Assembly (NCBI GenBank): GCA_012270865.1
Contig: JAAXHL010000056.1
Coordinates: forward strand, 26,292 to 90,291
Direction: 5' to 3'
Origin: Candidatus Poribacteria bacterium
GTDB lineage: Bacteria > Poribacteria > WGA-4E > WGA-3G
Length of the DNA stretch: 64,000 nt
Part shown: positions 25,419 to 28,571 of the stretch, in pieces
Layout of the letters: each line of letters starts with the position of its first letter
Position numbering within the stretch: position 1 is the first letter of the stretch
Notes under the pieces: generated by a model
The model's database searches: none
What the model saw: only the letters and a program-made list of their open reading frames with translations
Told to the model about the DNA's origin: nothing
Position numbers and translations under genes: made by a program

Positions 25419-25448
25419 TTGCCTAAACATAGAGCAATATGGTATACT
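25419..25448 (+). promoter_or_regulatory. sigma70-type promoter
   Basis: TTGCCT, 18 nt, TATACT, upstream of the ATG at 25482. Confidence 0.45.
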
Positions 25449-25481
25449 TATGTTAACTCTAATTATGGAGGTGCTGCCATT

Positions 25482-25922
25482 ATGAGGATCATATTGGTGT
25501 TATGTGTTCTCAGTCTTGCACTTTTTGTGCAGACAGCACTAGCTCAAGATAATCCCGTCGAACAAGAAGCACGGTTCACGAAAATTGAAGTAACCTTAAA
25601 ACATTTGAATGAAACCATCGGTAGCATAGATGCGCGGTTAGATAATATCTTATTCGCGATCATGGGTTTGTTTGCCGCCTTCTTTATCCCGATCTTTATT
25701 TTACTCCTGCAAATTAAAACGCAACTCAGAGACCTTGTGAATGATACGAGTAACCTAAAGGATAAAGTGAATGGACTTGAAGAACAGATGGTGGAAAACC
25801 GAAAAGAACTTATGAAACACACAACCGACCTATCAATAACAACGCATAAGCAGCTCAATCAAATTCGGGAAGCACTTGCTGTACAATTGGGAATTGTGCT
25901 TGAACCTGAAGATGAAATTTGA
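25482..25922 (+). CDS. hypothetical secreted/membrane coiled-coil protein
   Basis: The ATG at 25482, behind GGAGGTG, gives the signal peptide MRIILVLCVLSLALFVQTALA. One central TM helix. Confidence 0.65.
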   Translation: MRIILVLCVLSLALFVQTALAQDNPVEQEARFTKIEVTLKHLNETIGSIDARLDNILFAIMGLFAAFFIPIFILLLQIKTQLRDLVNDTSNLKDKVNGLEEQMVENRKELMKHTTDLSITTHKQLNQIREALAVQLGIVLEPEDEI

Positions 25923-25931
25923 TAAAAATGC

Positions 25932-27092
25932 TCACGCTATGCCAGTCACGACACCGAACCCGATTCGGGATCCCATCTTCTTCACTTCAAACCGAGTGCC
26001 TACCTCCATCGCTAACGGCAAGTCAAGTGTAACGGTAACATGCGCATAATCCCCGGGTGTAATCAGGGACAGTCCTTCGGGAAGCTTTAGGTGCGCCGGT
26101 ATATCAACACTCCAGAGACGGATGTCGGGTCTATCGTTCTCAATCAACGGGATATGCGTGCCACTCTCTTCCTGTGTCAGTAGATAGACGAGCGCGGTAA
26201 ATTCGGAGTGCGCTTTGATTGTTTTCGGTGGACAAAGCACCTGTCCAACAGACAACCAATCGGGTTCAGACGCAACGGACACTTCATCACCCTTTGTGCT
26301 GAGAACGCGTGTCTTGATCCTATCGCCTTTACCGACAATATCCACCGCTTGACCGACAGCGAGATGCCCTTGGACAACCTCACCACGGACAGATACCGTA
26401 TCCTTTGTTTCTTCGACGATTTCATGAATCGGCATAATGACTGGTAAATTTGCGGTGTCTATAGGTGCTGGCATTGTGCGGTTCATCGCGAAGACCAGAT
26501 CAACGATCGGTTGCCACTGTGCTGAGGTGACGCTGCTGCCTCTGTAGTCTAACGCCTTAAGAGCATCGCCGATAGTTATGGGTGTCGTCTCTTCTTCCCA
26601 TCCATACTCACTGAGTAACTCGCGCATCTCCTGTTCGCAGATGTCTAACAGTTCATCGTCTGTTGAAATACCACCTGTATTCAGAAAGGGGAGGACTATC
26701 GGGAGGTGCATCTGGTGTGCAAGGCGGAGGTGAGCTTGCGAATCCGGCGTAACACCCTCGACAGCATTCACGACCCAAATCGCGCCTTGAATTGCGGGAG
26801 AACCGCTGATTAGCATTTTGATACCATCAAGGTGTGTTTCGCAGTCGATGTGTGTATACAGTTTACCGCTGGTTTCATAAGCGATTGAGCGGTAGGTGAT
26901 GCCAACGCCTTCTCGGATTGGGTGATGGATTGGCGTTTGTGCTTCAAAGTCGCCATCGTCATCGGTGTGAATCGCTCCGATCCTCGCGACGACTTTCGCT
27001 ATTGCTGCGGTCAATGTCGTTTTGCCGTGTCCATCAGCACCGAGGGTGCAAATCGGTAGCCGCCGATGCGTGTTTCCTTTTTTCTCTGTCAT
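25932..27092 (-). CDS. EF-Tu-like three-domain protein with degenerate GTPase motifs
   Basis: Aligns by eye along the full length of EF-Tu (GADGHGKTTLTAAIAKV; ...GFGVVTGI end). G3 is DCPGH->DCETH and G4 is NKCD->NTGG. The start at MTEKKGNTHRR matches the position of the EF-Tu N-terminus. Confidence 0.8.
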   Translation of the reverse strand: MTEKKGNTHRRLPICTLGADGHGKTTLTAAIAKVVARIGAIHTDDDGDFEAQTPIHHPIREGVGITYRSIAYETSGKLYTHIDCETHLDGIKMLISGSPAIQGAIWVVNAVEGVTPDSQAHLRLAHQMHLPIVLPFLNTGGISTDDELLDICEQEMRELLSEYGWEEETTPITIGDALKALDYRGSSVTSAQWQPIVDLVFAMNRTMPAPIDTANLPVIMPIHEIVEETKDTVSVRGEVVQGHLAVGQAVDIVGKGDRIKTRVLSTKGDEVSVASEPDWLSVGQVLCPPKTIKAHSEFTALVYLLTQEESGTHIPLIENDRPDIRLWSVDIPAHLKLPEGLSLITPGDYAHVTVTLDLPLAMEVGTRFEVKKMGSRIGFGVVTGIA

Positions 27093-27204
27093 CTTTTTCT
27101 TCTCTCCTGATCCGGTATAATCTGTATCTTGCAAGTTCAGTTCTATTATATCAGAAAATCAGGATTTAAGCAACGCTCTGATTTGTTCTCAACGGCATAA
27201 AATA

Positions 27205-27234: not shown

Positions 27235-27320
27235 TTACTGACTTCTGATATTCTTAGTCTTCAACAAGAAGAACGTCAGATTATCTATACCAATGTATTT
27301 GCCACAATAGAAGTTTGTCA

Positions 27321-28571
27321 ATGGATATAAAATACACAGATCAACAGATAGTGGAACTAATTGCTGAACGTAAAGTTTTACCAGATGATTGGCGTACCCA
27401 ACTCAATGAGCATAACAGTTTGTATATTATCGGGGAAAATGGTAACCGTTTCCGTCTCATAATCAATCAGAATGAGAAATATCCATCAGATTTTTCGGTA
27501 ATCTTAGCGGTTATAAATCCTAAAACTGGTGCGACTTTTCGGATCCGTCGCTATAACGGTATGCCTAAGCGTCCACACAACAACAAAATTGAAAAACAAA
27601 AAATTTATGGTTACCATATTCACTTTGCTACAGAGCGGTATCAGGCGAGAGGTTATGATGAGGAGGCTTATGCAGAAGAGACAGACCGGTATAATAATTT
27701 TGAAGGCGCGCTACAGTGTCTTATACAAGATGCGAACTTTGAATTACCTGCACAGTTGGAATTAAAACTTTTTTTGGGGGTGAGAACAATGTCAGTAAAA
27801 AAAATAGAAAAAGACTTCATTGATAAGGTTTCCGCAGAGATACAACTCTCAGCAGATGGCAAAGACCGTTTCCTCGTTTTTACGCCATTTCATTTCAACG
27901 ATGGGGATCAGTTGGTTATTGTACTAAAAAAGATGGGCGGTAGGTGGGTGCTCTCAGACGAGGCACATACCTATATGCACCTTTCATACTATATGGATGA
28001 ACAGAGACTTCATAGCGGAAACCGTCAAAAGTTAATTTTAAAGGCTCTATCCATGTTTCAAGTTGAAGACTATGATGGGGAATTGGTTATTGATGTCTCT
28101 AATGGTCATTATGGGGAAGCACTTTATGACTTTGTTCAGGCACTACTCAAGATTATTGACGTTACATATTTATCAAGAGAAACAGTTCGATCAACATTTA
28201 TAGACGATTTTCGTGCCTTTTTGTATCAGAAGGTAGAATCAAGGCGCATGACATTCGACTGGCAACATCCGACAAATGATCCCGATGGAATTTACAAAGT
28301 AGACTGTAGAATAAACGGAAAGGTCCCTCCATTATTTGTGTTTGCCTTAAATAACAGTGCTAAAACGCAAGCAGCCACAATTGCATTACACCAGTTCAGG
28401 GCATGGGGGATTGATTACCAACCTATAGGCGTTTTTGAGAAAGAGAATGCGACAACTCGCGATGTACTCTTACGTTTCAACGATGTTTGTGATACATATT
28501 TCACTGATATAATCAAAAACGGCGAAGAAATTAGACGATATTTGCAAGATTATATGTCAGGCAAAGGATAA
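27321..28571 (+). CDS. fusion protein: unknown ~150-aa N-terminal domain plus DUF1828/DUF1829-like region
   Basis: 416-418 aa. The second half, FLVFTPFHFNDGDQLVIVLKKMGGRWVLSDEAHTYMHL, matches my memory of the DUF1828 pattern. The N-terminal domain (..RRYNGMPKRPHNNKIEKQKIYGYHIHFATERYQ..) was not recognised. Looks AT-rich. Confidence 0.7.
   Translation: MDIKYTDQQIVELIAERKVLPDDWRTQLNEHNSLYIIGENGNRFRLIINQNEKYPSDFSVILAVINPKTGATFRIRRYNGMPKRPHNNKIEKQKIYGYHIHFATERYQARGYDEEAYAEETDRYNNFEGALQCLIQDANFELPAQLELKLFLGVRTMSVKKIEKDFIDKVSAEIQLSADGKDRFLVFTPFHFNDGDQLVIVLKKMGGRWVLSDEAHTYMHLSYYMDEQRLHSGNRQKLILKALSMFQVEDYDGELVIDVSNGHYGEALYDFVQALLKIIDVTYLSRETVRSTFIDDFRAFLYQKVESRRMTFDWQHPTNDPDGIYKVDCRINGKVPPLFVFALNNSAKTQAATIALHQFRAWGIDYQPIGVFEKENATTRDVLLRFNDVCDTYFTDIIKNGEEIRRYLQDYMSGKG

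Follow-up and report, generated by a model that had tools for sequence, protein, structure and literature searches.

The question raised by this locus is what a protein may do once it has kept the fold of elongation factor Tu (EF-Tu), which is among the most conserved and best-studied of all proteins, and shed the motifs of its GTPase. The gene lies in a 64,000-nucleotide stretch of DNA (the window; C44:26292-90291) on a contig of a Candidatus Poribacteria metagenome-assembled genome, and encodes the protein designated P0001:

25932..27092, minus strand: EF-Tu paralogue gene, product P0001, 386 amino acids (aa) plus stop, ATG start at 27092 (open reading frame (ORF) list and translation).

P0001 is a neofunctionalised paralogue of bacterial EF-Tu, restricted to Poribacteria and kept alongside canonical tuf. 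By sequence criteria it is a pseudo-GTPase, with motifs G2, G3, G4 and G5 all altered within an EF-Tu fold, and its job must be other than that of EF-Tu, and one so far undescribed, because the residues for GTP sensing, guanine recognition and the holding of a charged tRNA have been lost. An alternative TTG start at 27134 would lengthen the product to 400 aa, but the predicted start of transcription lies at this codon or downstream of it.

A preliminary description of this DNA, made from the letters alone, had called the product a full-length EF-Tu paralogue and had argued that the gene was not a second tuf, and profile searches agree on both points. P0001 matched the EF-Tu model TIGR00485 with 240.6 bits across residues 8-385, as well as the Pfam domains GTP_EFTU (3.8e-21) and GTP_EFTU_D3 (6.9e-15), while the Pfam scan gave no match to GTP_EFTU_D2. 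The TIGR00485 score is less than half of the equivalog cut-off of 522.4 bits, and the profiles of other subfamilies scored far lower against P0001 (SelB, 37.7 bits; EF-1alpha, 33-47 bits; CysN, TIGR02034, 17.8 bits; versus about 240 for EF-Tu). Solved EF-Tu structures are about 33-36% identical to it over the full length (HMMER). The same genome carries canonical tuf in copies scoring 718 and 702 bits. The second of these (702 bits; G000:C173:12-1211, locus L002) stands alone on a 1.2-kb contig, and its switch I has an additional insert, '..GRRDPTKILT..', absent from the other copy; it may be the gene of another organism, the estimated contamination of the genome being 8.5%. Most Poribacteria genomes have one canonical tuf and the paralogue.

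The state of the nucleotide site was followed in a table of 41 family sequences, in which canonical sites carry Escherichia coli EF-Tu numbering. Ten of the sequences belong to a basal type, found in two other families (f6 and f7) of the class to which the window's order belongs, and 31 to a crown made up of families f1-f4 of that order, f1 being the window's own family. The motifs of P0001 are as follows:

27018..27041, minus strand: G1 P-loop GADGHGKT, residues 18-25, with GxxxxGKT kept.
26895..26909, minus strand: switch-I remnant GVGIT, residues 62-66 (HMMER and MAFFT alignments, site table).
26832..26846, minus strand: G3/switch II DCETH, residues 83-87, with the Walker-B Asp and the His at the catalytic position kept and the DxxG Gly replaced by Thr.
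26670..26681, minus strand: G4 NTGG, residues 138-141, in place of NKxD, with the guanine-recognising Lys and Asp lost.
26559..26570, minus strand: G5 GDAL, residues 175-178, in place of GSAL, with Asp176 new.

The strings quoted in the preliminary description (GADGHGKT, DCETH, NTGG, DALKAL at 176-181, and GFGVVTGI) are all present, and the losses it reported, of the glycine of DxxG in G3 and of the lysine and aspartate of G4, were confirmed. It had also counted the GIT of switch I as retained, which proved mistaken: the GIT of P0001 (residues 64-66) is displaced by two residues from the canonical one, and in both the HMMER and the MAFFT alignments canonical G59-I60-T61 pairs with G62-V63-G64, so that the G2 threonine has become Gly. 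Losses that go beyond the preliminary description are this switch-I Thr, the change of SAL to GDA in G5, and a deletion of 14 residues in domain II.

Across the family, the P-loop residues G18, G23, K24 and T25 and the Asn135 of G4 are each found in 41 of 41 sequences, and D80 is likewise invariant. Pro stands in the place of T61 in the basal type, and Gly, Tyr or Ser in the crown. G83 is kept in one of the 41 sequences, P0122 (DGLGH); the other 40 have N, D, S, T or E there. The catalytic-position H84 is retained in 14 of 18 f1 members. The G4 motif differs by clade: NK[IV]D in the basal type, NKAD or NEVD in f4, NK[SA]E in f3, NQ[TS]E in f2, and NTGG, NTRN or NIHN in f1. S173 is Asp in all members of f1, f2 and f3 and in one of the two f4 members; the basal type and canonical EF-Tu both have Ser there. 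Within f1, residues 140-141 of NTGG vary and Asp176 and the P-loop are fixed, a pattern that fits a loss of base reading with a continuing constraint on the phosphate site. A separate observation concerns Thr66 of P0001 (window 26895-26897; E. coli position 63), which is Thr or Ser in 28 of the 31 crown members, whereas the basal type has Ala at this position and canonical EF-Tu has Ala or Asn.

The second group of losses affects the part of EF-Tu that holds the aminoacyl end of a charged tRNA:

26268..26306, minus strand: junction of the 14-residue domain II deletion (MAFFT alignments, site table, no GTP_EFTU_D2 match).

The deleted stretch corresponds to canonical ..EMF.K.LDEG.AG.N.. and carries E259, F261, R262 and N273 of the pocket for the 3' end of aminoacyl-tRNA. 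Taken as a whole, the aminoacyl/CCA pocket (H66, E215, D216, F218, T228, E259, R262 and N273) has been replaced or deleted at every position in P0001, and we infer that the protein would be unable to serve as a GTP-driven carrier of aminoacyl-tRNA. The 14-residue deletion is found in f1, f2 and f4. At the same site, six f3 members (L020, L022, L023, L026, L027 and L028) have a variable acidic or Pro/Ser-rich low-complexity insert of up to about 55 residues (L027), which split the genome-search matches into two pieces.

It might still be supposed that P0001 carries or guards a non-canonical RNA, such as a deacylated or modified tRNA or a tRNA-like RNA, by way of domain III and switch II and without GTP control. 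K89 and H319, which contact the tRNA 5' end and the T-stem, respectively, are invariant in all 41 family sequences, the loop R-E-G-G has become K-K-M-G with a charge reversal to Lys, and there is a precedent in archaeal aSelBL, which has a disrupted G domain yet binds Cys-tRNACys (PMC3037878, PMC4329189). However, the acceptor-end pocket is deleted, R288, R318, Q329 and T338 are lost in the crown, and no gain of positive charge for RNA binding was seen in P0001 (isoelectric point 5.17), which has fewer basic residues than EF-Tu (K+R 32 versus 46). Such a role is therefore quite unlikely, and the related suggestion of the preliminary description, a tRNA-binding regulator, is weakened by the same loss of the acceptor pocket.

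The family proved to be confined to one phylum. The best 120 homologues from a protein search are 78-98% identical to P0001. Among 176 genomes of the phylum, 171 gave a match at E<=1e-30, a threshold that also takes in canonical tuf; matches at the level of the paralogue (43-100% identity, full length) came from nearly all f1-f3 genomes and part of f4, families that all belong to the window's order, and phylum genomes outside f1-f4 gave canonical-level matches only in that search. All 80 named loci are from Candidatus Poribacteria, as are all named matches in the other searches. Among 1.84 billion cluster representatives, only two 50% clusters stood above ordinary EF-Tu (about 35% identity), namely P0122 at 53% and P0123 at 40%. 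The first is the f3 form: its NCBI-named cluster members are Poribacteria and it groups with f3 loci in the tree. The second heads a small basal subfamily (P0286-P0298), from non-sponge metagenomes, of which the named members are again Poribacteria.

In a maximum-likelihood tree the paralogues, including P0123, formed a single clade on a long stem, with 100% support in the SH-like approximate likelihood ratio test (SH-aLRT). The branching inside this clade matches the taxonomy and therefore indicates vertical descent. The family is no closer to the tuf of Poribacteria themselves than to the EF-Tu of other phyla, and the canonical part of the tree is poorly resolved, so that an origin by duplication within the phylum and one by transfer from outside are neither of them favoured. 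The preliminary description had called for a phylogenetic and profile placement, and the outcome sustains its view: no described subfamily (SelB, EF-1alpha or CysN) matches, and the family is a monophyletic Poribacteria clade.

The two types also record how the nucleotide site was dismantled. Lost at the base of the family are Thr61 (the Pro of the basal type), Gly83 (to Asn or Asp), H66, R262, N273 and E378 (to Lys). The basal type retains NK[IV]D, SAK, E215/D216/F218/T228/E259, the GxG loop that touches helix h5 of 16S rRNA, Q329 and T338; in the crown these G4/G5, pocket, GxG, Q329 and T338 features have gone, and an Asp stands at position 173. Read from these residues, the decay falls into three steps. 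The two gamma-phosphate sensors (switch-I Thr61 and DxxG Gly83) and part of the aminoacyl/CCA pocket disappeared first, at the base of the family; the remaining domain II pocket, the 16S-h5 loop (GRG) and Ser173 followed in the sponge-associated crown; and the guanine-reading NKxD yielded last, becoming NKxE, then NQxE and, in the family of the window, NTGG. These living intermediates amount to a natural experiment in the conversion of a GTPase into a pseudo-GTPase.

The paralogue has been inherited vertically and is kept by purifying selection. The median pairwise ratio of nonsynonymous to synonymous substitution rates (dN/dS) between P0001 and 62 orthologues was 0.098, and the frame is intact, with no stop codons in any listed genome match. 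More than 150 independent assemblies share these substitutions, and because they recur in this way, chance is excluded, as is assembly error, which the preliminary description had named as a possible refutation. The degeneration of several catalytic motifs could be taken for the mark of a decaying pseudogene or of an assembly or annotation artefact, but that explanation is refuted by the intact frames, a dN/dS of about 0.1, a conserved promoter and Shine-Dalgarno sequence (described below), a confidently predicted fold, and the recurrence in >150 assemblies.

What the protein has kept is as informative as what it has lost, and the best-retained segment points to a partner:

26604..26663, minus strand: helix D, residues 144-163 (E. 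coli 141-160), the best-retained canonical segment.

Helix D is known as the helix to which the ribosomal stalk protein bL12 (C-terminal domain) and EF-Ts dock; the contact with bL12 is described in PMC10901736 as well. Its E144, L145 and E152 are found in 41 of 41 family sequences, and D142 and E155 are nearly invariant. Of all segments, this helix keeps the largest fraction of canonical-invariant residues in the crown (0.60), against 0.33 in switch II, 0.28 in domain II and 0.12, the lowest value, in switch I. The reading favoured here, tentatively and with somewhat less than even confidence, is that P0001 is a non-cycling, low-abundance adaptor with an EF-Tu fold, acting through the EF-Tu surfaces it has retained, above all through helix D towards the bL12 stalk or EF-Ts. 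Continued binding of nucleotide or phosphate is suggested by the strict conservation of the phosphate/Mg2+ site (P-loop, Thr25, Asp80 and Asn135), and the ligand would most likely be structural, without switching. The constitutive adaptor would then dock via helix D onto a partner of EF-Tu, either the bL12 stalk of the ribosome or EF-Ts, and would modulate translation, not perform it. A second EF-Ts as a dedicated partner was considered and rejected, there being only one tsf in the genome.

In a more specific form, P0001 would be a nucleotide-insensitive mimic of EF-Tu, of single origin, whose helix D occupies the bL12 stalk/GTPase-associated centre or holds EF-Ts. This version is rather improbable, but if true it would make P0001 a translation throttle or ribosome-idling factor of a new kind, fitted to very slow growth, and the first adaptor in bacteria to stem from EF-Tu itself, with the basal-to-crown series recording the path from GTPase to pseudo-GTPase.

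An AlphaFold2 (AF2) model of P0001, built on a 71-sequence alignment, had a mean predicted local distance difference test (pLDDT) score of 92.8 and a predicted template modelling score (pTM) of 0.89. Its best Foldseek matches were EF-Tu in the open GDP form, with a template modelling (TM) score of 0.88, and values of 0.84-0.89 across the top-ranked solved chains. According to the model, the three-domain EF-Tu fold is kept in P0001, and the claim of the preliminary description, that of a pseudo-GTPase retaining the EF-Tu shape, holds both for the altered G motifs and for the predicted fold. A canonical Chloroflexus EF-Tu (P0334), modelled as a control by the same pipeline and alignment, was likewise open (TM 0.93-0.96 against most of the GDP forms, 0.53-0.59 against those with GTP). 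Because the canonical control is open as well, the open shape is uninformative about the state of the paralogue, and a 'locked open' or GDP-shaped state of P0001 deduced from AF2 was rejected; any claim that the paralogue is locked 'off' depends solely on the loss of Thr61 and Gly83.

On idle ribosomes bound by the hibernation factor Balon, open EF-Tu(GDP) is held through bL12, 16S h5 and domain III (PMC10901736), and P0001, with its retained helix D, might be a dedicated open-form partner of a Balon-type factor. That is very unlikely. The baeRF family 10/12 models (PF18854, PF18856) found nothing in the window's genome, whereas both match in Bacillus subtilis and Thermus thermophilus; the h5-contact loop and the domain III residues that contact tRNA or Balon have been lost; and the open shape, as noted, is also given by the canonical control.

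Several observations weigh against the adaptor proposal. The conservation of helix D could be partly structural, and the family does not conserve M112, Q114 and H118, which contact EF-Ts. The loss of the 16S-h5 contact loop in the crown runs contrary to canonical docking on the A-site side. The codon adaptation index (CAI) of the paralogue lies only at the 18th percentile, that of tuf at the 95th, and those of tuf and fusA at the 95th-99th; high expression was accordingly rejected on codon usage, and the low index means that the protein is not made in amounts stoichiometric with ribosomes. No conserved operon partner is present across f1, f3 and basal loci, where the housekeeping neighbours differ by clade. 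As for the non-cycling part of the proposal, Thr/Ser66 might have taken over the role of Thr61 in the Mg2+/phosphate contact after the register shift, and, with the catalytic-position His mostly retained, some residual nucleotide hydrolysis is not excluded.

A possible, though doubtful, alternative is that the EF-Tu fold has been re-used outside the ribosome, as a scaffold, chaperone or enzyme regulator, the P-loop serving as a structural or allosteric nucleotide site. CysN plays such a part for CysD, and EF-Tu itself moonlights. Every signature specific to tRNA or the ribosome has gone in the crown (H66, E215/D216/F218, E259/R262/N273, G222/G224, Q329 and E378, now Lys), and domains II and III have invariant residues peculiar to the family (GKGDRIKTR, SEPxW, THIPL..ND, KKM). 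The low codon adaptation is unlike that of translation factors, and among the loci surveyed the paralogue was never found in a str/tuf or ribosomal operon. On the other hand, no conserved neighbour points to a pathway, and the best-kept canonical segment is precisely helix D, the one for docking to bL12 and EF-Ts. A paralogue that is clade-wide and under selection, and that has shed the switch, guanine recognition and the aminoacyl-tRNA pocket while keeping the phosphate site and the stalk/EF-Ts docking helix, shows the EF-Tu fold put to another use.

Among known systems, bacterial EF-Tu (TIGR00485; PDB 1EFC, 1TUI, 6GFU) is the closest family. It shares with P0001 the fold (TM 0.88), 33-36% sequence identity, the P-loop, Asp80, Asn135, K89, H319 and helix D. 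The differences lie in Thr61, Gly83, Lys136/Asp138, Ser173, the aminoacyl/CCA pocket and the h5 loop, all missing from P0001, and in a gene that is outside the str/tuf operon, is not codon-optimised and scores under half of the TIGR00485 cut-off. CysN/NodQ (TIGR02034) is similarly a bacterial member of the EF-Tu family, and CysN is used outside elongation, but it keeps all G motifs and adjoins cysD, whereas P0001 scores only 17.8 bits against its model and has no adjacent cysD. To our knowledge, the bacterial EF-Tu paralogues described so far (extra tuf copies, SelB and CysN) all keep a working GTPase. In yeast, Ski7 is a pseudo-GTPase derived from eRF3/Hbs1, and so a catalytically incompetent paralogue of a translational GTPase that became an adaptor; it differs in being eukaryotic and in having an added N-terminal region that binds the exosome and Ski complex, and its sequence relation to P0001 is at superfamily level only.

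The closest analogue in kind is aSelBL/MM1309, an archaeal paralogue of the EF1 family with a severely disrupted G domain and lineage-wide conservation, which binds GTP and Cys-tRNACys while in a closed form and which keeps the conserved features for aminoacyl-tRNA and ribosome binding (PMC3037878, PMC4329189). P0001 resembles it as a lineage-conserved EF1-family paralogue with a disrupted G domain, and aSelBL is not a classical nucleotide switch; unlike aSelBL, which is archaeal and SelB-derived, the Poribacteria protein descends from the EF-Tu of bacteria and no longer has the acceptor pocket. No description of the paralogue family was found in the literature searched on translational GTPases, pseudo-GTPases, or Poribacteria together with EF-Tu, and a survey of translational GTPases lists no such bacterial subfamily (PMC4342817). 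Current annotations of its members read 'hypothetical protein' or 'GTP-binding protein', and some sources wrongly have 'elongation factor Tu', so that the paralogue may be miscounted as tuf in Poribacteria genomes and proteomes.

In the window, a 167-aa ORF and hisA converge on the paralogue, which on its other side diverges from a gene of different base composition:

27315-28571, plus strand: DUF6978-DUF1828 fusion gene, GC content 38.7% versus 51.6% for the paralogue, PADLOC candidate PDC-M24B (5.4e-19).
25419-25922, plus strand: 167-aa ORF with a hydrophobic N-terminal stretch and a coiled coil, weak Pfam matches only, between hisA and the paralogue.

In f1, 62 of 80 loci have a convergent hisA downstream at a distance of up to 900 bp, and a small RfaE/HldE-like cytidylyltransferase gene lies divergently upstream in 43 of 68; in the window's genome the latter is on another contig. 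The neighbours in f3 are a peptidase M20 and an isochorismatase, and those of the basal type a chorismate-binding enzyme, an AP_endonuc_2 protein and a peptidase M20.

The divergent arrangement with the DUF1828 gene had been pointed out in the preliminary description, and stands, but this neighbour is incidental. A functional link was rejected: the fusion gene is directly upstream in one of 68 full loci, has matches in two of 80, is AT-rich, and is replaced by other genes in relatives. It is probably mobile or defence-island cargo. In a close relative (L007) the DUF6978 and DUF1828 halves are separate adjacent genes of 151 aa and 260 aa. Elsewhere the place upstream of the paralogue holds AAA_15/AAA_21 ATPases with DUF4276 (L008 1-5190; L009 1-4981), an MmeI-type methylase with TaqI_C adjoining the paralogue of a basal-type locus (L114 4428-6892), or, in six loci of A4, TPR-trypsin ORFs with matches to RT-Protease_XI and LmuA, both of them PADLOC models. 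This spot appears to be an integration hotspot, and because the paralogue and its promoter are constant, the variable defence-like cargo reflects hotspot behaviour and not linkage.

It is against this background that a further speculation of the preliminary description, that of a decoy or sensor for phage proteins, toxins or other factors directed against EF-Tu, has to be judged; Doc/Lit-type enzymes and CdiA/Tse6-type toxins are examples of such factors. The overall EF-Tu shape is kept, the upstream spot often holds defence-like cargo (PDC-M24B, AAA_15/AAA_21 with DUF4276, the MmeI-type methylase, TPR-trypsin), and phages and toxins abound in the dense microbiomes of sponges. However, no positive evidence for the idea emerged, and it is distinctly unlikely. 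The paralogue is a vertically inherited core gene with a dN/dS of about 0.1, nothing suggests an arms race, and it is the cargo that varies, not the gene or its promoter. The known attack sites on EF-Tu, R-G-I-T-I for Lit and T382 for Doc, are not conserved: the former is altered, and at the latter none of the 41 family sequences has Thr, 34 of them having Lys or Arg. The low codon adaptation also speaks against a titrating decoy, and P0001 itself gave no PADLOC match.

The paralogue has expression signals of its own, which are well conserved among its orthologues:

27145..27173, minus strand: sigma-70-type promoter with TTGCTT, a spacing of 17 nt and the extended -10 element TGATATAAT (sequence).
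27102..27107, minus strand: Shine-Dalgarno sequence GGAGAG, 9 nt before the ATG at 27092 (sequence).

The extended -10 element, TGnTAnAAT, was found in 64 of 68 f1 orthologue loci, with TTGn 17-19 nt upstream in 63 of the 68, and GGAG lies 5-11 nt before the ATG in 66 of 68.

Two minor features adjoin the gene on either side. The 167-aa ORF is found in only three of 80 related loci (L033, L053 and L074), hisA elsewhere being mostly close to the paralogue, and it looks like a small insertion. On the promoter side, most genus-level orthologue loci (L035-L077) share a conserved element, TTTG(A/G)CAAGTTTTTCC, about 75-95 nt upstream of the paralogue's ATG and about 10-25 nt upstream of the -35 box, which is degenerate in the window (TTGGCAATATTTTAT) and could be the promoter of the divergent neighbour, an UP element or a regulator site.

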